From a bacterium (GTDB taxonomy: Bacteria > Omnitrophota > Gorgyraeia > Zapsychrales > Zapsychraceae), in contig JAUIER010000008.1 in assembly GCA_030429765.1 (NCBI GenBank), forward strand, positions 83,403 through 147,402: a stretch of DNA of 64,000 bases, in the 5' to 3' direction. Numbering within the stretch: the stretch's first letter is position 1; the number at the start of each line of letters is the position of its first letter. The position numbers and the translations under genes are program-made. The notes under the pieces are model-generated. The model saw nothing but the letters and a program-made list of their open reading frames with translations, was not told the DNA's origin and did not search any database. Below are positions 1-55,788 of this stretch, piece after piece.

Positions 1-2
1 TT

Positions 3-1682
3 CCTACAAAAGCATGGGCACAGAAACATTTGGAACAGCATCGCCGGCGTGCTTATGGGAGCTTACATGAAATGTTTGGGTTGGAGAATAAGGATGCCAA
101 GCTGAAAATCCAGGAAATCGAGTATCTCATAGAGGAACTTAAGAATTCTGATCAAAAAATGGCACAAATGCAGCTATGCGTTCATGTGTACTCCAAAAAT
201 TTGGAGTTGGTAAAGAAACGTTCGAATCAGGTGATTCGGATTTTTACGGAGCTCAACGGAGCGGAGGCTCACAATGAAAGATGGGGGGCAACTTTGCCTG
301 TTTTTATCGGCAGCTTGCCTGGATGGACGAAAGAGTCATCACGACAGATAACCCTTAAGACCCGTCAGGTCGCGGACATTCTTCCTATGTTTTCACAGTT
401 TCACACAAAGGACCGAGGTGAATGTCTATTCTTCAACCGTTCGCAGGGGTTGGTCTGCCATGATTTATTCAGTGAAGACTTAGACGCGTATAACTCCATT
501 GTCATCGGCGCCTCTGGATCTGGTAAAAGTTTTGTCACTCAGCAAATCATCCAACAGTACAGCAAGAATGAAATCTGTGAAATCTACGTCGATGTCGGTG
601 GAAGCTACCACAGGCATGTCGAGCTTAAGGGCGGGAGCAATATCGCTATAGGCTTAAAGAGTAAATTCACGTTGAATTTATTTGATTTGCCGCAAGGTAA
701 CACTTTCAGTCAACTCGATGATGAATCCAAGGAGGAGATAATTAATCTTAAGACTAACACCATTGCCTTAATGATTGGCGGATTTGGGCAATTTGAGTTC
801 GGTCAGATTGTTGAAGACTATCTGGCGCACAGTATCCGTTATTTGTACCAGAATGTTGATTATCCGGAATTAAGTGACCTCAAAAATGCACTCAAGTATT
901 GTGCCAAGCACAACAAGGTGTGGACGGAAAGTCAGGATGTGATTATTGGACTTCTGGGGATCTGGTTCAAAGGTGGACAGTATGGATCCTTCACAGATGG
1001 TAAAAGTACGATCTCAATGGACAACAATGTGATTTGTTTTGACCTTAAGGGGCTGAATAACTTTAAAAAGTTACAGAAAGTTCTCTTTTCCGTAATTACC
1101 AATGTGATCTGGTCGAAAGTGATGGGAGATAAGGAAAAGCCGAAGGTTGTTGTGTTTGATGAGGCCTGGCAACTGCTGGCCAGTCCTGAAGGCGCGTCAT
1201 TCATATCCGAATGCTATAGGACGTCCCGCAAGTATAAGTTTGCGGTGATCTCTATCAGTCAGTCACTTGAGGAATTTCGGTCCGATAAAATGCTGGCGGG
1301 AGCGATTCTTGGAAATGCACATACACTGTATATCCTCAGGCAAAACAATGCCGATGCGGTAGAGAATATCGTTAAATTCTTCAAATTCAACTCGCAAGAA
1401 CGGCGTCTCATTGAAAGTCTTCGCATCGAGAAGGGCAGCTACAGCGAAGTATTCCTATCCCAACGAAAAGGAATGGGAAACGTCAGAGGGGTATTGCGAA
1501 TTTACCCGACACCGTTGGAATTGTGGCTGGCAACGACCAATCGCGATGATGTGAACTATTTCGAGAAGGTTAAAAAACAGTATCCCAAGGCGAGTTTACT
1601 CAAAATTCTTGAGAAATGTGCTCTTAAATATCCTAATGGTGTCAAAACCAGTAAGAACCGAAAAGGAGGTGATCCACAATGA
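3..1682 (+). CDS. VirB4/TrbE/CagE-family type IV secretion ATPase, C-terminal ~550 aa; N-terminus lies beyond the window edge
   Basis: The reading frame is open to the window start; the tool start at 30 is a TTG. Walker A GASGSGKSF and Walker B VVVFDEAWQLL are present. It is the first gene of a T4SS-like array. Confidence 0.7.
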   Translation, partial: PTKAWAQKHLEQHRRRAYGSLHEMFGLENKDAKLKIQEIEYLIEELKNSDQKMAQMQLCVHVYSKNLELVKKRSNQVIRIFTELNGAEAHNERWGATLPVFIGSLPGWTKESSRQITLKTRQVADILPMFSQFHTKDRGECLFFNRSQGLVCHDLFSEDLDAYNSIVIGASGSGKSFVTQQIIQQYSKNEICEIYVDVGGSYHRHVELKGGSNIAIGLKSKFTLNLFDLPQGNTFSQLDDESKEEIINLKTNTIALMIGGFGQFEFGQIVEDYLAHSIRYLYQNVDYPELSDLKNALKYCAKHNKVWTESQDVIIGLLGIWFKGGQYGSFTDGKSTISMDNNVICFDLKGLNNFKKLQKVLFSVITNVIWSKVMGDKEKPKVVVFDEAWQLLASPEGASFISECYRTSRKYKFAVISISQSLEEFRSDKMLAGAILGNAHTLYILRQNNADAVENIVKFFKFNSQERRLIESLRIEKGSYSEVFLSQRKGMGNVRGVLRIYPTPLELWLATTNRDDVNYFEKVKKQYPKASLLKILEKCALKYPNGVKTSKNRKGGDPQ

Positions 1683-2074
1683 AATACATTCTAGTTTTTT
1701 CTATCTTGTTGTTATCCGGCTGCACCACGACCCAGAAGTATGCGGCAACGGGAGCTATCGTGGGATCTACTGTAGGTGGGGCGATCGGCTATCAGTCAGG
1801 TGATTCTTCTCAAGGGGCTGCTATCGGAGCTCTGACAGGCGGATCAATCGGTGTTGTCTTGGGCGAACAGAAGAAGCAGAAACTCTCCGACTATGACAGA
1901 GGCTTTGAATCGGGATACAGGCAGGGGCAGGCCGATTTGGCCAAGACAATGTGGAATCAGAATACCGGAAAGTGCGCTAATACCGGGGAGACAGTTTTAC
2001 TTATAGACGGTATTCCCAATGGACGCGTACAAGGCGTGATTTATCAGGAGCCGTACCAGGAGGTGAATCCATGA
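1679..2074 (+). CDS. Small lipoprotein with glycine-zipper repeats, VirB7-like by position
   Basis: Lipobox LLSGC; GxxxG-rich segment (GAIVGSTVGGAIGY..GALTGGSIGVVLG); stop/start overlaps the flanking genes. Confidence 0.45.
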   Translation: MKYILVFSILLLSGCTTTQKYAATGAIVGSTVGGAIGYQSGDSSQGAAIGALTGGSIGVVLGEQKKQKLSDYDRGFESGYRQGQADLAKTMWNQNTGKCANTGETVLLIDGIPNGRVQGVIYQEPYQEVNP

Positions 2075-21106: not shown

Positions 21107-22813
21107 ATGTCGTATCTGGTTTTAGCCCGTAAACACCGTCCGCAGACATTTAAAGATGTCATCGGTCAGGAACACATTACGGATATTCTGATTAAAAGTA
21201 TTGAGACCGACCGCATGGCGCACGCGTATCTGTTTTGCGGACCGCGCGGTGTGGGAAAGACGACCTGCGCGCGGATCGTGGCCATGTGCCTGAACTGCGA
21301 AGACGGGCCTAAAACGGTACCGCCGGCGGACAGCGATGTTTGCCGGGAGATCGCCGAGGGCCGCAGTTTTGATGTGCTCGAGATCGACGGGGCCTCCAAC
21401 CGCGGGATTGATGAGGTGCGGATGCTGCGCGAGAATGTCAAGTTTGCGCCGACCTCGGGCAAATTCAAGATCTATATCGTCGACGAGGTCCACATGCTCA
21501 CCACCGAGGCGTTTAACGCGTTGTTAAAGACGCTGGAAGAGCCGCCCGAACACGTCAAGTTTATCTTTGCCACGACCGAACCGAATAAAGTTCCCGCGAC
21601 GATTATCTCGCGGTGTCAGCGATACGATTTTAAACGCATTCCGGTACCGAAGATCATCGAAGGACTTAAGGAGGTCAGCCGCAAAGAGAAGTACACCATC
21701 GACGAGCAGGCGCTGTTTGCCATTGCCAAGGCGGCTCAGGGAGGGCTGCGTGACGCGTTGAGTATCCTGGACCAATTGAGTGCGTTGAGTGATAAAGGCA
21801 TCGGCGAGGCCGATGTGTATTCAATGCTCGGTCTTGTCGAAGTGGATTTACTGTTTGATCTGGTTGATCACATCGGTGACGGCGATTGCGCCAAGGCCTT
21901 GGAGACGCTCGACGCGGTGGTCAACAAAGGCAAGGACGTCAAGCAATTGATCAAGGAGCTCACCGAACACTACCGGCATCTGATGGTCATCAAGGTCGGC
22001 GGTAAGACGCTAGGCAAGTTGGTGGACTATCCGGTGGCCATCAAGGAGCTGTTGCTCAAACAAACCGACAAATTTGAACTATCCGATATCATTCAGTCGA
22101 TAGATACCTTGATCGCGGCCCAGGACGCCGCGCGCATCACCGAGAATATCCGCATGGCGCTTGAAGTGGCCATTGCGCGCTTATCGTATCGCGGACAGTT
22201 GCCGGCATCCGCCGCGAAGCCGAGTCCGGCCGCGGCCAGACCCACGCCGTCGCGTACGGCCAGTGCCGCCCCGGCGGCATCACCGGTCCTGAAAAATAAA
22301 CGCGGGGCCGTCGACAATGTCGGATCCCCCAAGCCGGCCGCTAAACCCGAACCCAAGCCGACAATGTCGGACCAGGTCGATGACGAACTGTCACGGCTCG
22401 ACGAGCCGGAAGAAAAACCGCCCGTGGTGGATATCGGTGAACCGTTGGCCGTCCAAGAAGAGGTTGAGCTGGACCTCGAGCATGTGCGAAAGGTATGGGA
22501 TTTGTTGACCTCGGCGGTAAGCAAGGAAAAGATGTCGATTGCCACATGTCTGCAGGAAGGGATGCCCACACGGCTTGACAGTAAATATCTCTATATCGGC
22601 TTTCCGCCGAAATGCAGTTTTCATCGGGACAGCGTCGATGATCAAAACAACCGCATGATGATCGAGCGGATCTTCAGCGAACAGTTAAAGCACAAGGTGT
22701 CGCTCAAGTTTGAGATGGTCGAAGAGGTCGAGGAGGCCCGGATGGACGACAATGTCCAGTCGACGCTCGACGCCTTTGGCGGCAAGGTGGTCAACCGCTG
22801 GCACAATGAATAA
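21107..22813 (+). CDS. dnaX: DNA polymerase III subunit gamma/tau
   Basis: LARKHRPQTFKDVIGQEH...LFCGPRGVGKTT AAA+ clamp-loader N-terminus. Confidence 0.9.
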   Translation: MSYLVLARKHRPQTFKDVIGQEHITDILIKSIETDRMAHAYLFCGPRGVGKTTCARIVAMCLNCEDGPKTVPPADSDVCREIAEGRSFDVLEIDGASNRGIDEVRMLRENVKFAPTSGKFKIYIVDEVHMLTTEAFNALLKTLEEPPEHVKFIFATTEPNKVPATIISRCQRYDFKRIPVPKIIEGLKEVSRKEKYTIDEQALFAIAKAAQGGLRDALSILDQLSALSDKGIGEADVYSMLGLVEVDLLFDLVDHIGDGDCAKALETLDAVVNKGKDVKQLIKELTEHYRHLMVIKVGGKTLGKLVDYPVAIKELLLKQTDKFELSDIIQSIDTLIAAQDAARITENIRMALEVAIARLSYRGQLPASAAKPSPAAARPTPSRTASAAPAASPVLKNKRGAVDNVGSPKPAAKPEPKPTMSDQVDDELSRLDEPEEKPPVVDIGEPLAVQEEVELDLEHVRKVWDLLTSAVSKEKMSIATCLQEGMPTRLDSKYLYIGFPPKCSFHRDSVDDQNNRMMIERIFSEQLKHKVSLKFEMVEEVEEARMDDNVQSTLDAFGGKVVNRWHNE

Positions 22814-22850
22814 ATCAGTCCTAACGATCTAACATCCACAAGGAAACAAC

Positions 22851-23450
22851 GTGAGCTATCCTCAACTTCTGGAAAATTTTATCAATCAGCTTTCCCGACT
22901 GCCCGGTGTCGGCCGGCGCAGCGCCGAGCGGATGGCGTTCTGGTTTCTGGACCAGGCCAATGAAGACGTCATGGGCTTCGCGCGTGACATGGCCCGGCTC
23001 AAGGAAGGGCTGATGTTCTGTGCGCGCTGCAATCATTTGAGCGACGGCGAGATCTGCACGATCTGTGAGGATGCCGACCGCGATCAAAAGACGGTCTGTG
23101 TGGTCGAAGATCCCAAAGACGTGATCGCGATTGAAAAATCCGGATCCTACCGCGGGATCTATCATGTGCTGTTGGGCTCCATCTCGCCGGGAGACGGCCG
23201 CGGTCCTGAACAATTAAAGATCCAGCAGCTGCTCGACCGGGTCCGGCAGGAAGAGGTCGTCGAAGTGGTGATTGCCACCGATCCGGACAGTGACGGCGAA
23301 ATGACCGCCATCTATCTCACCAAACAACTCAAACCCCTGGGGATCCGTGTCAGCCGTATCGGCGTCGGGTTACCCGTCGGTGGATCACTCGAATTCGCCG
23401 ATATGTCCACCCTCAGCATGTCGCTGAACGCGCGCCGCGTTATTGAATAA
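22851..23450 (+). CDS. recR: Recombination protein RecR
   Basis: HhH N-terminus; C4 zinc finger CARCNHLSDGEICTIC; Toprim domain. Confidence 0.9.
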   Translation: MSYPQLLENFINQLSRLPGVGRRSAERMAFWFLDQANEDVMGFARDMARLKEGLMFCARCNHLSDGEICTICEDADRDQKTVCVVEDPKDVIAIEKSGSYRGIYHVLLGSISPGDGRGPEQLKIQQLLDRVRQEEVVEVVIATDPDSDGEMTAIYLTKQLKPLGIRVSRIGVGLPVGGSLEFADMSTLSMSLNARRVIE

Positions 23451-23485
23451 CGGCGACTGATTCATATCAAAAATATTGAAAGAAG

Positions 23486-24037
23486 TTAACGGCCTGATCG
23501 CAATCGGCTTTGATTGCTGAGTGATCGGGCGCGGTTTTGATTCGAGAATCCTCGGGCCGTATCACGATTGGTTCGCCGCAGGCGATTATTGGAGGTTGAG
23601 CGTGTGACTTTATTGGGAGGGCGATTGCTGTTGGACAGGCGCTGCGCGTTGGGGCGGTTGCTGCCCGAGCTGCCGGAACTCACGGAATCCGATCCGGCGG
23701 ACGAGCGAATACGCGGTGTCCGTCGACGACGACGGGTTTCGTCGCCCGTCGATGATCCGGAACCATACTGATTCTGAATGGAATCAATGCGCTCTTCGAT
23801 CTGTCGATATTTAAACAGGATGTACTCGTGACGGTGATTGTCTTGGATGTATTTGAGCATGGAGGGATCGCTTTTGAGCTCGGTCCAGATTTTTTTCTGA
23901 CGTGTTTCGTCTTTGTCGTTGTAGGCCGCGACATAATCACGCACCAATTGACTGGCGCGTTCGTTGGTCTGGGCAGAGGCCTGTTCGGCCGGCCCGAGCA
24001 GCAGGATGACAACAACAATGGTCCAAAGCTTTGACAT
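23486..24037 (-). CDS. Secreted hypothetical protein with Ser/Arg/Asn-rich low-complexity tail
   Basis: Signal peptide; the C-terminal 80 aa are dominated by S, R and N. Confidence 0.4.
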   Translation of the reverse strand: MSKLWTIVVVILLLGPAEQASAQTNERASQLVRDYVAAYNDKDETRQKKIWTELKSDPSMLKYIQDNHRHEYILFKYRQIEERIDSIQNQYGSGSSTGDETRRRRRTPRIRSSAGSDSVSSGSSGSNRPNAQRLSNSNRPPNKVTRSTSNNRLRRTNRDTARGFSNQNRARSLSNQSRLRSGR

Positions 24038-24098
24038 AATCGGATTATAGCATGGCCGTCGGTGGCATTAACGGATTATTTGCAAAATTTCGTTCCGG

Positions 24099-24350
24099 TT
24101 ACGTGATGTGCGACGCCCCCCGAAAGACATTGGAGGGAAGGTTCTTCGGCGACGGGGTGACTTCAATCATTTTGATATTCTGCGTGTGCAGAAAGATCAG
24201 CCGTCCGTCGAGCTCAAAGCACAGTGTGTTGGTGTCGCCGATCTTGTGGATGTCATTGGCCACACTGATCGTGTCCTCGGTATTGGCGTTGAACTCAAAG
24301 CGCATGGTCGTTCCGTCATTAAAATAGACTTTACAGGTTTCGGTTGTCAT
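24099..24350 (-). CDS. Hypothetical small protein
   Basis: 83-aa ORF with a plausible start context; no recognisable motif. Confidence 0.3.
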   Translation of the reverse strand: MTTETCKVYFNDGTTMRFEFNANTEDTISVANDIHKIGDTNTLCFELDGRLIFLHTQNIKMIEVTPSPKNLPSNVFRGASHIT

Positions 24351-24575
24351 GATGCCCTCCTTTGGTCAATCATTAGCTCATACCTTTATTATAGATCAGT
24401 TTGAAACAGCCGCCTACCGAATTTTTGGTGAAGCGCGACGCGGTCGGTCCGCCCGGACACGTTGAGGGATGTGCTCCTAAGTTTATGACATCAGGGAGGT
24501 TGGAGCAAGGTGGCTGGAATTCAATGATCGGCTGGCGTATCTGAGATACGGGGAACGTTTAGTTGAATTTGATCA

Positions 24576-24603
24576 TTGACAATTCAATGAAATTCGCTAT
24601 AAT
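24576..24603 (+). promoter_or_regulatory. Sigma70 consensus promoter (TTGACA-N16-TATAAT) overlapped by a TTGAATT/AATTCAA inverted repeat
   Basis: Exact -35 and -10 hexamers; downstream hairpin CCCCCG-N12-CGGGGG at about 24635-24658. Confidence 0.55.
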
Positions 24604-24667
24604 TCCAATCATATTTGCGGTTCGAAACATCCCCCGAAACAACAGCGCCGGGGGCTGCTCTTTATAG

Positions 24668-24787
24668 ATTTAATCCCCGATCCCGCCAAAAATCGTGGCG
24701 GGCTCGCCCGCCTTAAGAGTATGGTGGGCTCATCCGCCTCAAAGTTATGACGGATGATTTGGGAAAAAACTTTAATCCCCGATAGCT
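24668..24787. repeat. ~120-bp direct repeat copy 1; contains CCGCC/GGCGG palindromes and ends with a 13-nt copy of the tRNA-Asn 5' end
   Basis: Near-identical to 25152-25273; internal palindromes CCGCCAaaaatcgTGGCGG and GGCGGGCtcGCCCGCC. Confidence 0.8.
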
Positions 24788-24880
24788 CCCCGCCAAAAAA
24801 TCGTGGCGGGCTCGCCCGCCTTCAGACTTTGGCGGGTTCAGCCGCCGGAATAATATAGCGGGTCCGCCAAGGTTTTTGGC
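24788..24880. repeat. Array of REP-like CCGCC/GGCGG hairpins (partial third repeat copy)
   Basis: ccgccaaaaaatcgtggcgggctcgcccgcc...ggcgggttcagccgcc...gcgggtccgccaaggtttttggcgg. Confidence 0.6.
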
Positions 24881-24898
24881 GGAACATCAAGGGGATAT

Positions 24899-25150
24899 AT
24901 GTTTTACGTATATGTGTTAAAAAGTAGACGGAATGGGAGGCATTATACAGGCTTCACGTCGAAAAATCCCGAGCAACGTCTTAAAGAACATAACTCGGGA
25001 TCCAATGCATACACAAAAGGAAATAGACCGTATCAATTGATTTATTGGGAACAGTACGCTGATAAATCGTTTGCATTGAAACGTGAGAAATTTCTAAAAT
25101 CTGGAGTCGGCCGAAGAGTACTAACTAGAAAACTCCAGTCTGATCTTTAA
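24899..25150 (+). CDS. YhbQ/UPF0213-like GIY-YIG nuclease-family small protein
   Basis: YVYVLKS..GRHYTGFT...R..EHN GIY-YIG motif; 83 aa. Confidence 0.7.
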   Translation: MFYVYVLKSRRNGRHYTGFTSKNPEQRLKEHNSGSNAYTKGNRPYQLIYWEQYADKSFALKREKFLKSGVGRRVLTRKLQSDL

Positions 25151-25151
25151 A

Positions 25152-25273
25152 ATTTAATCCCCGATCCCGCCAAAAAATCGTGGCGGGCTCGCCCGCCTTA
25201 AGAGTATGGTGGGCTCATCCGCCTCAAAGTTATGACGGATGATTTGGGAAAAAAATTTAATCCCCGATAGCTC
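25152..25273. repeat. ~120-bp direct repeat copy 2, running into the 5' end of tRNA-Asn
   Basis: About 98% identical to 24668-24787. Confidence 0.8.
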
Positions 25274-25336
25274 AGTTGGTAGAGCAGCTGGCTGTTAACC
25301 AGCTTGTCCGTGGTTCGAGTCCACGTCGGGGAGCCA
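25261..25336 (+). tRNA. tRNA-Asn(GUU) with encoded CCA
   Basis: TCCCCGATAGCTCAGTTGGTAGAGC...anticodon loop CTGTTAA...GGTTCGAGTCC...TCGGGGAGCCA. Confidence 0.9.
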
Positions 25337-25376
25337 TATAAAAAAAGGGTATTGCACTAGCAATACCCTTTTTTTA
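25337..25376. terminator. Bidirectional intrinsic terminator
   Basis: AAAAAAAGGGTATTGC-acta-GCAATACCCTTTTTTT perfect hairpin flanked by A and T runs. Confidence 0.7.
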
Positions 25377-25686
25377 TATGATTTCTGGCTAAAAATTGAA
25401 CAAAGACCGCAGGGCAGTGAGAGTTCACTAGTGTGTAACGCAGTTACACACGTCGGGGAGTGATTCGACGCGCCCCTCGTTTCACTCGGTGCTTGCTCAT
25501 CATTGTTGGTGAACATAGTATAGTGAGACGAGGGGCTTTTTTTCGAAGAATCCTGAGCGAACGATGGTGAGCGAGGCCGAAGGCCGAGTCGAGCCAGAGT
25601 GAGTCGAAGGATGCAGTGAATCCCGTCGCAATATTAATCATATCCCCCAGAAAAGTTGTATTCATGTTCCCCAAGATTATCAGTCT

Positions 25687-25941
25687 ATGTACTATCTTTA
25701 TATTCTCAGATGTCAGAGAGGAAAGCTGTACACGGGGATTACGTCAGATATCCAACGCAGATTCAAGGAACATCGTCGTAAAAAGGCACATTTCACGTCC
25801 TACAATTTGCCAGAAGAAGTAATTTATACGGAAACTTTTCCAGACAGAAAGCAAGCCGCTAAAAGAGAACGCCAACTCAAGCGCTGGACCCGCGCCAAGA
25901 AAATGGCGTTGATTGATCGGGGAATTGTGAGTATTATTTAA
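25687..25941 (+). CDS. Second YhbQ-like GIY-YIG nuclease-family small protein (paralog)
   Basis: YYLYILRCQRGKLYTGITSDIQRRFKEH motif; 84 aa. Confidence 0.7.
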   Translation: MYYLYILRCQRGKLYTGITSDIQRRFKEHRRKKAHFTSYNLPEEVIYTETFPDRKQAAKRERQLKRWTRAKKMALIDRGIVSII

Positions 25942-25943
25942 TT

Positions 25944-26606
25944 ATGAAGTTTTTAAGTACACTAAGAGTGTTAAGTATCACTGTTTTGGCTGTTTCTCTG
26001 TCCGGCTGTATTGCGCCGCGTTCAAAGTTCTACCTTCCATCTCAAAGTGAAGCTACGTATTTCGGGCGGGTTAATAAGGCTGTTATGCCATCCGATATTA
26101 GAAATAATGTTGAACAGTATAGTGGCGAAGAAGTTCATTGGGTCGGAATAATACGAGGCCACGAAATTATTGACAAGGACTCAACGAAGATAATTGAGAT
26201 TGAAATAGACCAAAAATACTATGACTATGTATTGGATTATAGTATCCAACGAGAAAAAATGTTTTTATCGCCAAAAGGAGAAGGTATCTTCTATCTAGAC
26301 TTATTTGTAGACGCAGGCATATCGGAGGATGAGCTAAAAAGAATAATAGATCAGCTTAGCATCAAAAATTTAATATTTGCATACGGAGTCGTTCAGGGAT
26401 TAAAGCAAGGAAAACCCGCTGTGAAGGCACTTTATTATGTGATACACGATGAATCAGTGTATGCCACGAATATATTTTCATATGAATATGCTAAAGACGA
26501 GAACGGCAAGGTTATTCTAGGTAGTTCTGGATTTCCTTCATTAACCAATCATGAGGTCTTTCAAACGCCTTTATTTGGAAGAAATCAATCCAAAATCGAT
26601 AAATAA
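25944..26606 (+). CDS. Hypothetical lipoprotein
   Basis: Lipobox LSGC; AT-rich composition. Confidence 0.5.
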   Translation: MKFLSTLRVLSITVLAVSLSGCIAPRSKFYLPSQSEATYFGRVNKAVMPSDIRNNVEQYSGEEVHWVGIIRGHEIIDKDSTKIIEIEIDQKYYDYVLDYSIQREKMFLSPKGEGIFYLDLFVDAGISEDELKRIIDQLSIKNLIFAYGVVQGLKQGKPAVKALYYVIHDESVYATNIFSYEYAKDENGKVILGSSGFPSLTNHEVFQTPLFGRNQSKIDK

Positions 26607-26821
26607 TTTGAAATTGTAATTTTATGCTCTATTTTGCATATCTAGTTATCAAGTTCGTCTACGGGAGCAAGCCGTAATAAAAAGATATTGCTAATGCAAT
26701 GCCCTTTTTGGGTGTGATCCTCTACTTCAAGCTATCTATCAGCAGCATTTATTTTCATCTCAACTGTTGCTAAGCTATATCTTGTTTCATATAGTTATAT
26801 AATAAAGCCAAATCGAGAGAC

Positions 26822-27436
26822 ATGTTGACGACAAAAAATCTATTCAAACTCATAGTTGTGTGTTGTTTCCTGAGCGGATGTTCGGCGGTATCCACGGCCG
26901 GGAACGCGGTTGGAACCGTCGGGCGCGTGGGGTGGACGGCGGCCAAGGTCACGGGCAAAGCGGCCTATCACACCGGCAATGTGGCCTACAAGACCGGTCA
27001 ATTCACCAGTAAGGCGGTCCGAAGTGCCGTCTACATGAAGCAAGGCAAACAGCTAATTCCACTGCGCAAACAGGGCGACAGTTTGTACGTGGATGTCAAG
27101 CTCAATGGCAAGGCCTCGGCGCGCTTGCTGCTGGATACCGGGGCATCGGTGACTCAAATCTCTCACCGGCTGGCCAAGAAGTTACGTATCAAGAAAAATC
27201 AGGGTGTTCCGCTGGAGGTGCGTATTGCCAACGGCCAAATGGTGCGCGGCCGAAAGGTGCGTCTCAAAGAGATCCGGGTGAGAAGTGTTCGCGTGACCGA
27301 CGTGACGGCGATTGTTTTAGATCAAGAGGTGGCCAGTGATACGGACGGATTGCTGGGGATGAGTTTTCTCAAGCACTTTTCGTTTGAGGTCGATGCCGAA
27401 AAAGGCGAACTGCTGTTGCAGCAAAAGGCGTTATAG
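26822..27436 (+). CDS. Retropepsin-like (clan AA) aspartic protease lipoprotein
   Basis: Lipobox LSGC; active-site LLLDTGAS motif. Confidence 0.65.
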   Translation: MLTTKNLFKLIVVCCFLSGCSAVSTAGNAVGTVGRVGWTAAKVTGKAAYHTGNVAYKTGQFTSKAVRSAVYMKQGKQLIPLRKQGDSLYVDVKLNGKASARLLLDTGASVTQISHRLAKKLRIKKNQGVPLEVRIANGQMVRGRKVRLKEIRVRSVRVTDVTAIVLDQEVASDTDGLLGMSFLKHFSFEVDAEKGELLLQQKAL

Positions 27437-27538
27437 TTGTTTGCGTCCGGAATTTCAGTTACAAATATAGAGGGTCATCAATCCTGTTCATACCAAGTGT
27501 GTAAAGTACGCTTTTAACAATTTAACTCAGCGAATCAA

Positions 27539-28075
27539 ATGAAAATCGGTACCTACAATCCAAATGACGCCTCAAACATCGAGCAGTTGTTCATTCAGGC
27601 GTTTTCTGACGCAGAGGGACCGTCGGAGGGTGAGATGATTGGACGGCTTGTCAGGAATTACCTGACCGGCACGGATGCGCCGGACTTTTATTGTTTTACG
27701 GCCGTGGATAGCGTCGAGGTCTTGGGATCAATCTTTTTTTCACGAATCACGTTTGAGTCAGACATCAACGCCTTTATTTTATCGCCCGTTGCTGTAAGGA
27801 CAGATGCGCAAAACCAGGGTATTGGTCAGCGATTGATACGATATGGTCTGGATGATCTATCGAAGCGGGGAGTGGAATTAGTCATTACCTATGGCGATCC
27901 GGTTTTTTATCGTAAGGTTGGTTTTGAGGTTGTCCCCGAAACGAAAATCCCGGCGCCTCTGAGTTTGACCTATCCCGACGGGTGGATGGCGCAGTCCTTA
28001 ACGGACAAGGAGATTCCCGTGATTACCGGAAATTCCGCATGTGTAGCGGCGTTGAACGATCCTGAGTATTGGTAA
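27539..28075 (+). CDS. GNAT-family N-acetyltransferase
   Basis: Acetyl-CoA-binding motif QNQGIGQRLI. Confidence 0.65.
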   Translation: MKIGTYNPNDASNIEQLFIQAFSDAEGPSEGEMIGRLVRNYLTGTDAPDFYCFTAVDSVEVLGSIFFSRITFESDINAFILSPVAVRTDAQNQGIGQRLIRYGLDDLSKRGVELVITYGDPVFYRKVGFEVVPETKIPAPLSLTYPDGWMAQSLTDKEIPVITGNSACVAALNDPEYW

Positions 28076-55311: not shown

Positions 55312-55788
55312 ATGGAAAAATTTAAGCGAGTTTCAAGCTTTGTAGGTATAGCGGTTGTGCTGTTGCCGGTACAAGCCCACGCCTGTCCCGGGTGCATGAT
55401 TATCCCGTCGAGTTCGCGGTTTAATCTGCTGGGATGGCTGTTTTGGCTGTCGTTGATCTACTGGGGAATTATGCTTATTAGCACGGCGGTGCGACAGGGT
55501 CAAAGAGGCCTGTCCCCGGAAGGGGACTGTCCCCTTTGGGGGACAAAGCTTGTTGTTGGTTGCGTGCTTTTGGCGCCATTCACCATGATGATGTCGGTGA
55601 TCGCCCTGCCGATCTTTACCTGTGTGCTGCAGGCCGTTCGGATCATCGTCAACCGGTCAAACTATACAAATCCCAGTTGGGCCGTCCGTTTGATCACGGC
55701 GTTTCAGTGGGTTGTCCTTGTCACCTTTGTGGTGATCTATATTGTCAAACCCGGCGGCGCGTTGCTGCCGTTGACCATAGGACATTAG
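55312..55788 (+). CDS. Hypothetical membrane protein
   Basis: Four hydrophobic helices; CPGC near the N-terminus. Confidence 0.35.
   Translation: MEKFKRVSSFVGIAVVLLPVQAHACPGCMIIPSSSRFNLLGWLFWLSLIYWGIMLISTAVRQGQRGLSPEGDCPLWGTKLVVGCVLLAPFTMMMSVIALPIFTCVLQAVRIIVNRSNYTNPSWAVRLITAFQWVVLVTFVVIYIVKPGGALLPLTIGH

Follow-up and report, generated by a model that had tools for sequence, protein, structure and literature searches.

Introduction

Why should a tRNA gene be preceded by a fragmented copy of its own 5' end, interrupted by GC-rich hairpins and followed by a gene for a very small GIY-YIG protein? The question is raised by the tRNA-Asn locus in a stretch of 64,000 nt (hereafter the window, to which all positions refer) from an Omnitrophota genome (assembly GCA_030429765.1, contig JAUIER010000008.1). 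A first-pass annotation, made from the letters alone, proposed that insertion or duplication had occurred repeatedly at a tRNA hotspot and involved two small, possibly selfish GIY-YIG genes. The comparison of related loci reported here supports that proposal; movement of the genes and nuclease action would be its inferred part. The window locus is one instance of what reads as a recurrent family of cassettes present in several bacterial phyla. The family is widespread, very compact, and nested in tRNA genes, and we could not find a description of it in the literature searched. On balance, we think it probable that the cassette is a selfish element acting at the DNA level. It would be expressed from the tRNA promoter, keep the tRNA by partial duplication, use its palindromes as cis sites for the nuclease, and spread by copying repair.

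Materials and methods

Related loci were sought in metagenome contigs by protein patterns only. The patterns were derived from an alignment of the first GIY-YIG protein of the window (GIY-YIG1) and its closest homologs; an initial alignment of GIY-YIG proteins was too diverse to serve the locus search. At least 600 candidate stretches were obtained, at least 481 of which encode relatives, and the best 80 were examined. The proteins of these 80 loci are 53–64% identical to GIY-YIG1, and about 10 of the loci are near-duplicates of one another. Individual loci are referred to by L numbers.

The authenticity of the window sequence was checked against Logan contigs. Two contigs of run SRR24442552 are 99.97–100% identical to positions 21482–24717 and 25225–27786; hence, the sequence is real and not an assembly artefact. 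The two contigs are from the same organism, both end inside the repeats, and they carry no information on alternative alleles.

In exact-sequence look-ups, GIY-YIG1, the second GIY-YIG protein (GIY-YIG2), and an 83-aa neighbor were not on record. A 24-mer from the hairpin core had no match in 596 Gb of reference genomes, a collection from which the source genome itself is absent. Literature searchable in full text (incomplete in coverage) was queried for GIY-YIG and tRNA, for YhbQ/UPF0213/COG2827, and for palindromes in tRNA genes, and contained no paper describing a nuclease-hairpin-tRNA arrangement.

Results

Anatomy of the tRNA-Asn locus

The locus is composed of the following features, in which tRNA positions are given in brackets and negative numbers denote the leader.

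24563–24587, no strand assigned: inverted repeat TTGAATT (24563–24569)/AATTCAA (24581–24587), read from the sequence; it flanks and overlaps the -35 box.
24576–24603, plus strand: native tRNA-Asn promoter, TTGACA-16 nt-TATAAT, matching the consensus at 12/12 positions.
24655–24788, plus strand: repeat copy 1, a displaced 5' part of tRNA-Asn, consisting of leader -19..-6, tRNA[-5..8] (24669–24681), a gene-less hairpin block with its tail (24682–24770; three hairpins at 24682–24702, 24707–24728, and 24730–24757), and tRNA[-5..13] (24771–24788).
24789–24883, plus strand: hairpin array after tRNA position 12/13, the left module of the GIY-YIG1 cassette and a paralog of the gene-less block.
24899–25150, plus strand: GIY-YIG1, 83 aa, catalytic domain only (Pfam PF01541, E=4.6e-17).
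25140–25273, plus strand: repeat copy 2, consisting of the end of the GIY-YIG1 open reading frame (ORF) in duplicated leader, tRNA[-5..8] (25153–25165), and a gene-less hairpin block (25166–25255).
25261–25336, plus strand: intact tRNA-Asn(GTT) with encoded CCA (ARAGORN; Rfam RF00005, 68.8 bits).
25335–25380, no strand assigned: perfect 21-bp hairpin between A and T runs, a predicted bidirectional terminator (inverted-repeat finding and comparison with L006).

The repeat finder pairs 24655–24788 with 25140–25273. A direct repeat of about 120 nt whose copies both end in the 5' 13 nt of tRNA-Asn had been described in the first-pass annotation, and the description holds. The repeat cores (24669–24788 and 25153–25273) are identical at 119 of 121 positions (98.3%) with one 1-nt indel, and both copies terminate in TCCCCGATAGCTC, which is tRNA-Asn positions 1–13. 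Copy 2 closes with the leader and the first 13 nt of the intact tRNA-Asn and runs on into the tRNA. The leftmost 14 nt of the two copies are more diverged (about 79% identical). The difference between the 98% identical core and this older flank suggests recent conversion between the copies. TTTAATCCCCGAT (tRNA -5..8) is present four times, at 24669, 24771, 25153, and 25256, which had gone unnoticed; thus, each hairpin block of about 89 nt is bracketed by a 13-nt direct repeat. The earlier picture can be refined accordingly in its parts. The "120-bp unit" reads as a gene-less hairpin module at tRNA position 8/9, bracketed by the 13-nt repeat, and the GIY-YIG1 block as a separate occupant of position 12/13. 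The displaced fragment of the tRNA 3' end appears to belong to a second cassette type with a leader of its own, which is described below.

The array at 24789–24883 contains three clear CCGCC/GGCGG hairpins (24789–24810, 24815–24836, and 24863–24883) and a weak fourth one of about 4 bp at about 24842–24861. Its part 24789–24861 is the partial third palindromic copy that had been reported, with 77–82% identity to the other two copies. The hairpin core GGCGGGCTCGCCCGCC has 10 matches at ≤3 mismatches in the window against 0.62 expected, and nine of the 10 fall within 24697–25223. Where the first and second hairpins meet (24697–24712, 24805–24820, and 25182–25197), the minus strand carries GGCGGGCGAGCCCGCC and then ACGATTTTTT. 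The pair resembles an intrinsic terminator, which would stop antisense transcripts from entering the tRNA locus.

The perfect sigma70 consensus promoter with its TTGAATT/AATTCAA inverted repeat was noted previously and scores 12/12. The inverted repeat could be an operator. We infer that this promoter drives the whole array, i.e., the hairpin blocks, GIY-YIG1, and the tRNA. Comparable promoters are located just upstream of tRNA-Asn in L005 and upstream of the tRNA fragment in L006, L024, L047, and L051.

Recurrence of the arrangement at other tRNA genes

Among the 80 loci examined, 65 have a tRNA gene that starts after the GIY-YIG gene on the same strand, within 60 nt of the protein match in 54 cases and at most 415 nt away. 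Eleven isotypes are represented: Val (19), Asn (14), Lys (12), Ile (5), Phe (3), Ala (3), Arg (2), Thr (2), Gln (2), Asp (1), and His (1). The remaining 15 loci include six with less than 120 nt of contig left and five with a tRNA directly upstream, so that 70 of the 80 loci have a directly adjacent tRNA on one side or the other. An exact copy of ≥10 nt of the same tRNA's 5' region was found 6–130 nt before the ATG in 49 of 61 testable loci; the calculated chance expectation was about one. In most loci, the interrupted copy of the tRNA 5' part is located 40–70 nt before the ATG.

The order of the parts is fixed. The native promoter is followed by the tRNA (from a few leader bases to a position p), the GC-rich hairpin module, the tRNA onward for 5–28 nt, the ORF, and the intact tRNA. 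The 5–28 nt of tRNA after the module often provide the ribosome-binding site. Insertion positions cluster at canonical places of the tRNA, namely 8–9, 12–13, 17–18, 28, and 34–37. The module is inserted cleanly, i.e., the tRNA continues from p to p+1 with no target duplication. Mirror-image loci were also observed, in which the intact tRNA is followed by the ORF and then by [a..p], the module, and [p+1..76]. Gene-less arrays of partial tRNA copies, each with a module, are present in L022 and L064 with a period of about 100 nt; L057 has a doubled cassette, and L088 has a tRNA-ORF-tRNA*-ORF' repeat. In L079, upstream of the GIY-YIG/tRNA-Val cassette, double-hairpin matches (1587–1998, minus strand) overlap tandem tRNA-Met genes of the opposite strand; they may be modules or simply tRNA arms.

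Distant members of the family keep both the adjacency to a tRNA and the palindrome-interrupted tRNA copy. A Lutibacter genome assembly has a 20-nt palindrome identical to that of L006. In Melioribacter sp. Ez-97, a palindrome-interrupted pseudo-copy of tRNA-Cys is followed by the intact tRNA-Cys and the ORF. In another distant lineage, the ORF comes after tRNA-Gly, and a degenerate tRNA copy into which hairpins are inserted comes next. The Lutibacter locus (L090) has a tyrosine-integrase-like gene (2045–2770) after tRNA-Arg.

Occupancy of the orthologous recR-tRNA-Asn site

The first-pass annotation had suggested comparison with related tRNA-Asn regions, and this comparison was informative. 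Loci found by RecR place the organism in Candidatus Omnitrophota, and its best relatives have a RecR identity of 76%. The tRNA-Asn gene downstream of dnaX-recR is kept in three lineages (the window, L005, and L006) in three different states. L005 has no cassette between the promoter and the tRNA. L006 has, in this order, the promoter, tRNA[-8..21], the palindrome CCTGCCTGCCGGCAGGCAGG, tRNA[22..26], and a GIY-YIG ORF running into the intact tRNA, and the duplication is marked by a 28-nt direct repeat. In the window, the same site is filled twice, at 8/9 and 12/13, with a hairpin type unlike that of L006. Therefore, one tRNA gene is either empty or filled in two different ways. An identical arrangement in relatives, which the first-pass annotation had named as refuting its proposal, is not what these lineages show. 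Among nine relatives, synteny beyond recR was not conserved, and the four closest had no tRNA within 8 kb.

Other features were observed at these sites. A gene for a 538-aa large serine recombinase (L005, 8723–10339, minus strand) abuts the 3' end of the cassette-free tRNA-Asn, which suggests that a conventional element is integrated at this tRNA in the L005 lineage. An 18-nt tandem repeat array, partly N-masked, lies between recR and the tRNA-Asn promoter in L006 (8626–8960).

The hairpin module

The common module is 30 nt long and consists of two 15-nt hairpins, TCMGCC-RRA-GGCKGA followed by TCMGCC-TYN-GGCKGA. Variants are multiples of 15 nt (60 and 90 nt) or 21+21-nt forms with long loops; the long-loop form occurs in the window, L032, L034, L059, and L076. 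Among the 636 stem pairs of 53 distinct 30-mers, 622 are Watson-Crick, four G·T, five A·C, and five other pairs. The A-T and C-G changes within the stems are compensatory, which indicates that the hairpins are selected. The loop classes RRA and TYN are reverse complements of each other and give the module dyad symmetry. Dyad symmetry without wobble pairs is more in keeping with DNA-level palindromes or hairpins/cruciforms than with RNA. An argument for RNA hairpins was considered on the basis of a loose scan, in which G·T and A·C pairs stood at 12:4; it was dropped because the ratio is 4:5 among the 636 pairs of the family-specific set.

The modules are closely confined. Of 104 double hairpins in the 273 kb around the 80 homologs, 61 lie ≤120 nt upstream of the ATG and 25 lie ≤500 nt downstream (86/104), and the module family is found in the 64-kb window at the tRNA-Asn locus only. 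The first-pass annotation had also named a genome-wide REP cluster unrelated to GIY-YIG genes as an outcome that would undo its proposal; with the window copies restricted to this locus and the others mostly beside GIY-YIG genes, the 120-bp unit is not of that kind. An Rfam scan of the window and 10 related loci (E≤0.1–1) gave nothing on the hairpin leaders and no family for either leader. The scan returned the tRNA and chance-level matches; elsewhere in L006 and L051 it returned an unrelated fluoride riboswitch and a sub-threshold cspA-like match. The riboswitch (L006, 10611–10672; 48.6 bits, above the gathering score) is upstream of a membrane transporter gene and unrelated to the cassette.

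One other array of adjacent perfect GC hairpins was found in the window, at 55512–55544 (0 in shuffles). It reads GTCCCC-GGAA-GGGGAC, T, GTCCCC-TTTG-GGGGAC, with a purine-rich loop 1 and a pyrimidine-rich loop 2, so that its build resembles that of the modules at the tRNA locus, and lies in-frame within the ORF 55312–55788. Possibly, a palindrome has been inserted into a coding gene here.

The GIY-YIG proteins

Two small YhbQ-like GIY-YIG genes, the second 350 nt downstream of the tRNA, had been annotated, and both match PF01541 (83 and 84 aa; 62.5 and 67.6 bits against a cut-off of 22.6). GIY-YIG1 has a GC content of 0.38. It is preceded by a Shine-Dalgarno-like AGGGGA (24890–24895), and its last codons and stop lie inside the duplicated tRNA leader. 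In a 35-sequence alignment, Y16, G18, R27, H31, E63, and K67 are invariant and Y5 is nearly so. These include the GIY-YIG catalytic residues (Tyr, Tyr, Arg, His, and the metal-binding Glu), and the proteins are predicted nucleases. The best matches in a PDB profile search were 1ZG2 (BH0048, E=5e-9) and 1YWL (EF2693, E=6e-9), and a SLX1 homolog (7WME) matched at E=2e-3. By these matches, GIY-YIG1 and GIY-YIG2 are assigned to the minimal Slx1/UPF0213 (YhbQ-like) branch. No NCBIfam equivalog was found for them, and PADLOC gave no significant match.

A profile search retrieved at least 7,132 protein clusters at E≤1e-10, whose named sources include Omnitrophota, several CPR groups, Margulisiibacteriota, Bacteroidota, and Ignavibacteriota. 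A single relative was found in 2.9 million viral contigs. The family proteins end right after the catalytic core, and their variable C-termini are read-through into the leader or the tRNA; many ORFs run into the tRNA and yield C-termini such as ...CSSVG or ...LSSAGRASGC. Gene callers often lengthen the ORFs of the family, N-terminally through the hairpin and leader and C-terminally into the tRNA (alignment A2; P0007, P0064, and P0048). Such over-extension is a systematic annotation artefact and a possible search handle for the family.

The GIY-YIG proteins are under strong purifying selection. In protein pairs of 75–94% identity, dN/dS was 0.09–0.24 where measurable; non-synonymous divergence was 0.02–0.19, and synonymous sites were mostly saturated.

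Turnover and gene conversion

The upstream tRNA copies are 100% identical to their own intact tRNA (36/36, 17/17, 12/12, and 8/8 positions), and the tRNAs themselves differ between lineages (for Lys, 40–45 of 46 positions match). The module is nearly unchanged over the same divergence as protein pairs of 75–94% identity. The short tRNA stretch after the module sometimes mismatches its own tRNA yet matches that of another lineage. Together, the fragment-tRNA identity and the cross-lineage matches indicate ongoing gene conversion or repeated re-insertion. L033 and L060, whose proteins are 94% identical, differ by exactly one module plus tRNA[9-17], located in pseudo-copies on both sides of the ORF. 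The protein tree agrees with tRNA isotype only in part: the nearest neighbor of a protein is at a different isotype in 27 of 60 cases. Retargeting has therefore happened.

A second cassette type on the 3' side of tRNA-Asn

The 3' side of the locus contains three further features.

25431–25460, plus strand: hairpin GTGTGTAAC-GCA-GTTACACAC (25431–25451, 9-bp stem) overlapping a copy of tRNA 62–73, from the sequence and repeat finding.
25461–25615, plus strand: GIY-YIG2-type leader, TGATTCGAC..., a long hairpin (25472–25536) with a T run, ...TCCTGAGCGA...GAGTCGAAGGA; it aligns with L006, L098, and L101.
25687–25941, plus strand: GIY-YIG2, 84 aa, 42% identical to GIY-YIG1 (Pfam PF01541, E=1.2e-18), beginning 350 nt past tRNA-Asn.

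The reported repetition of the tRNA 3' end beside a GCA-loop hairpin is an exact 12-nt copy: CACGTCGGGGAG (25322–25333) recurs at 25449–25460. The chance of this specific 12-mer within 500 nt is about 3e-5. The segment between the tRNA and the displaced fragment (25334–25448, 115 nt, containing the CCA and terminator) is missing in L006, where the leader adjoins the tRNA directly.

The order of the 3'-side cassette in the window is the tRNA 3' end tag, the conserved TTCGAC...CTGAGCGA...GAGTCGAAGGA leader, and GIY-YIG2. A leader of about 150 nt is common to three loci (L006, L098, and L101). It starts with the tRNA-Asn 3' end tag GGGGAG, continues yryTTCGAC...CTCGCTCAG, and closes ...TCCTGAGCGA...GAGTCGAAGGA 10–70 nt before the ATG (alignment A4). 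The fold z-score of the GIY-YIG2 leader is -3.8. Homologs of GIY-YIG2 are few, and those with 55–66% identity have the same leader. In L006, the leader is fused directly to the real tRNA-Asn 3' end with no gene after it; in L098 and L101, the gene does follow it, and the available sequence (2.5 kb on each side in L098 and 0.6 kb upstream in L101) contains no tRNA. GIY-YIG2 and its leader are best described as a cassette type of their own, associated with the 3' side of tRNA-Asn. In L099, a more distant homolog that lacks the tag (a GIY-YIG2-like gene at 1201–1587) is located between kdpC and kdpD; its leader is short, TTCGAC...CTGAGCGGAGTCGAAGGA. To judge by such positions, the GIY-YIG2 family can evidently occupy intergenic sites unrelated to tRNAs.

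A predicted lipoprotein gene (25944–26606; 220 aa, GC content 0.37, no Pfam match) starts 2 nt past the GIY-YIG2 stop. It is probably foreign DNA that travels with the cassette or was inserted beside it. The GC content of the cassette genes and this gene is 0.37–0.42 against 0.56–0.58 for dnaX and recR.

Discussion

The anatomy, its recurrence among the 80 loci, the selection on both protein and palindromes, and the differing occupancy of one orthologous tRNA gene are the observations that any explanation has to accommodate. A selfish DNA-level cassette would accommodate them as follows. Lying between a strong native tRNA promoter and the intact tRNA, the cassette would be transcribed together with the tRNA; the nuclease would be encoded by the 5' portion of the pre-tRNA, from which RNase P would free the tRNA. 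The partial duplication would keep the essential tRNA gene whole. The palindromes would act as DNA-level cis sites for the nuclease. The nuclease would make breaks at the palindromes, some 10 nt to their side, or in tRNA alleles that lack a cassette, and repair of these breaks by copying would amount to homing-like gene conversion. The junctions lie 5–28 nt from the modules on either side, a spacing compatible with cuts made about one helical turn away from a palindrome to which the enzyme is bound. Through such repair, the cassette would spread, the tRNA copies would stay identical, and the tandem and gene-less derivatives would arise.

The history of the window locus may be reconstructed along the same lines. 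The ancestral order would have been promoter, leader, tRNA-Asn, and a TTCGAC-type trailer. A hairpin and GIY-YIG1 cassette would have arrived at 12/13 and duplicated tRNA[-19..13], so that the ORF now ends in the duplicated leader. A gene-less module bracketed by tRNA[-5..8] would have entered at 8/9 and is now in both copies. On the 3' side, GIY-YIG2 and its leader would have been gained or kept, and a small insertion would have renewed the tRNA 3' end.

Several points weigh against this explanation. The predicted protein of about 80 aa lacks the DNA-binding extension of characterized GIY-YIG homing enzymes. If the tRNA gene itself were the target, the intact copy in the same genome should be cut too. 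The module lies inside the left duplicate, with 5–28 nt of tRNA before the ORF, and no standard scheme of transposition or homing directly predicts this order. Classic target-site duplication, Campbell-type integration of a small circle, and plain homing were considered; each explains part of the arrangement, and none the order of a palindrome in the left duplicate. A module that is useful to the host, or addictive, would account just as well for the strong purifying selection and for insertions that appear old. The palindrome type does not co-vary with the protein clade for the long-loop form (0.569 within and 0.568 between, p=0.77), and a link between palindrome and clade is otherwise anecdotal (L006 and Lutibacter). 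Cross-isotype identity never exceeds 74%, and no near-identical pair of cassettes (>90%) was found at different tRNAs, so that a recent jump is not documented. Fusions and operons of Slx1-like domains with tRNA methyltransferases have been reported (PMC1564403) and hint at a role at the RNA level.

The last point leads to the main rival explanation, which we consider doubtful. The protein would act on the tRNA or pre-tRNA beside which its gene sits, the leader of tRNA fragment and hairpins would be a decoy, a type III-style antitoxin, or an autoregulator, and addiction would secure persistence. Consistent with this, Slx1-like domains are fused with TrmH (Gm18) and associated with COG4123 methyltransferases (PMC1564403). 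The leader is presumed to be transcribed from the tRNA promoter, its fragment has matched the resident tRNA exactly over long divergence, selection acts on the hairpins, and units of hairpin and fragment can multiply in tandem like repeat-RNA antitoxins. Positions 18 and 37 adjoin two of the insertion hot spots, and COG4123 includes the tRNA m6A37 enzyme. However, the 636 stem pairs have no excess of G·U (4 G·T against 5 A·C) and show the dyad symmetry of DNA palindromes. No complete tRNA arm is kept in the position-12 class, window included. To our knowledge, all characterized GIY-YIG enzymes are DNases, and the differing occupancy and low GC content point to mobility at the DNA level. A related idea is that the tRNA-fragment-hairpin leader is a functional RNA partner of the nuclease, either a tRNA-mimicking decoy or antidote or an RNA that targets cassette-free tRNA genes. 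Perfect, lineage-specific identity of fragment and tRNA is what such a role would demand, but the lack of wobble pairs and the variable fragment length (8–36 nt) argue against it, and we hold it to be quite improbable. If it held, no smaller nuclease system paired with a cognate, tRNA-derived RNA would be known.

In a further explanation, the cassette would not move as a unit. A Slx1-like nuclease gene resident in tRNA clusters might cut extruded palindromes, and the fragments and arrays would then be by-products of break repair. The distance of 5–28 nt between junctions and palindromes on either side, the tandem arrays, and the module-to-module deletions agree with this, as do the nearest characterized relative, Slx1, and the reported amplification of tRNA loci driven by SegB of phage T4 (PMC13096335). 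It leaves unexplained why the same gene and palindrome recur at 11 tRNA isotypes in several phyla and why relatives differ at the orthologous site; we consider it unlikely. A degraded integrase-type island at tRNA-Asn is highly improbable. In that case, the low-GC region of about 24850–26800 and the 12-nt repeat of the tRNA 3' end would be its remains and the GIY-YIG genes its cargo, and recombinase or integrase genes do lie just downstream of the tRNA in L005 and L090. However, no tyrosine or serine recombinase is among the ORFs in 22.5–28 kb, the repeats bound 115 nt only, and the GIY-YIG2 leader begins, in conserved form, with the distal copy; this combination of 3' tag and leader goes with GIY-YIG2 homologs in unrelated contexts. 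Moreover, integrases that target tRNA 3' ends do not make 5' end duplications and precise palindrome insertions. Finally, the tandem GC-rich palindromes, terminator-like on the minus strand, could suggest a generic REP/BIME-like cluster or an assembly artefact that lies beside the tRNA by chance. This is effectively refuted by the lack of further copies in the window, the absence of the 24-mer from the reference genomes, the tight linkage of modules to GIY-YIG genes in 80 loci, and the independent Logan contigs.

A selfish DNA-level cassette would show selfish DNA settling in an essential gene by a new route, without intron, intein, or integrase. A unit of about 0.3 kb would borrow the tRNA promoter, place 15-nt palindromes at canonical tRNA positions, and save the tRNA by partial duplication. 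The minimal Slx1/UPF0213 nucleases, with two solved structures and no function found in the literature searched, gain a concrete and testable context. Annotation is affected as well: the cassettes give rise to tRNA fragments, ORFs running into tRNAs, spurious N-terminal extensions, and assembly breaks at tRNA loci in genomes of CPR, Omnitrophota, Bacteroidota, and Ignavibacteriota. If the nuclease recognizes small DNA hairpins or tRNA-gene structure, it might become a useful minimal reagent.

Comparison with known systems

Members of UPF0213/YhbQ and eukaryotic Slx1 share with the cassette proteins the domain, the minimal size of about 80–100 aa, and the conserved Tyr, Tyr, Arg, His, and Glu. 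For the prokaryotic members, tRNA nesting, palindromic modules, and tRNA duplications are not mentioned in searchable papers, in contrast to the cassettes; Slx1 differs in its need for Slx4 and in its RING domain. The closest likeness in location is phage T4 SegB, a selfish GIY-YIG gene among tRNA genes that is inherited via break-induced copying (PMC2330249; PMC13096335) and promotes segmental amplification of tRNA loci (PMC13096335). Seg enzymes are longer than 200 aa, have DNA-binding domains, and are phage-borne, whereas the cassette proteins are about 80 aa long and chromosomal and, unlike Seg genes, always come with palindromic modules and a partial tRNA duplicate. Features of free-standing homing genes are found in the cassettes, namely a conserved target gene next to them (a tRNA in 70/80 loci) and differing occupancy at orthologous sites.

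Integrase islands and prophages likewise target tRNA genes and keep them intact by a partial duplication that leaves a direct repeat (PMC9897764). They are 5 to more than 100 kb long and carry genes for tyrosine or serine recombinases, and the part of the tRNA that they duplicate is usually the 3' end. The cassettes, in contrast, measure about 0.3 kb, have no recombinase, and usually duplicate the 5' part, and their fragment is interrupted by a palindrome.

In REP-RAYT systems, short GC-rich palindromes are linked to a dedicated small nuclease gene; the REPs are dispersed genome-wide, and RAYT is an HUH enzyme. The palindromes of the cassettes are instead confined to tRNA-derived sequence next to a GIY-YIG gene, with no HUH gene. 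Rickettsia palindromic elements are inserted precisely into genes without target duplication. Elements of the IS200/IS605 type with TnpB are very compact and have subterminal hairpins, they make no target duplication, and their nuclease is thought to promote re-copying. The cassettes differ from them in having neither an HUH transposase nor an RNA-guided nuclease, in targeting tRNA genes, and in the target duplication that is part of their design. Type III toxin-antitoxin systems (ToxIN-like) consist of tandem RNA repeats, a terminator, and an endoribonuclease toxin; the cassettes have hairpin repeats ahead of the nuclease gene, but their stems lack wobble pairs, no terminator separates repeats and gene, and the protein family is another one. 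In kind, the cassettes are akin to homing-type selfish nuclease genes and to tRNA-targeting elements.

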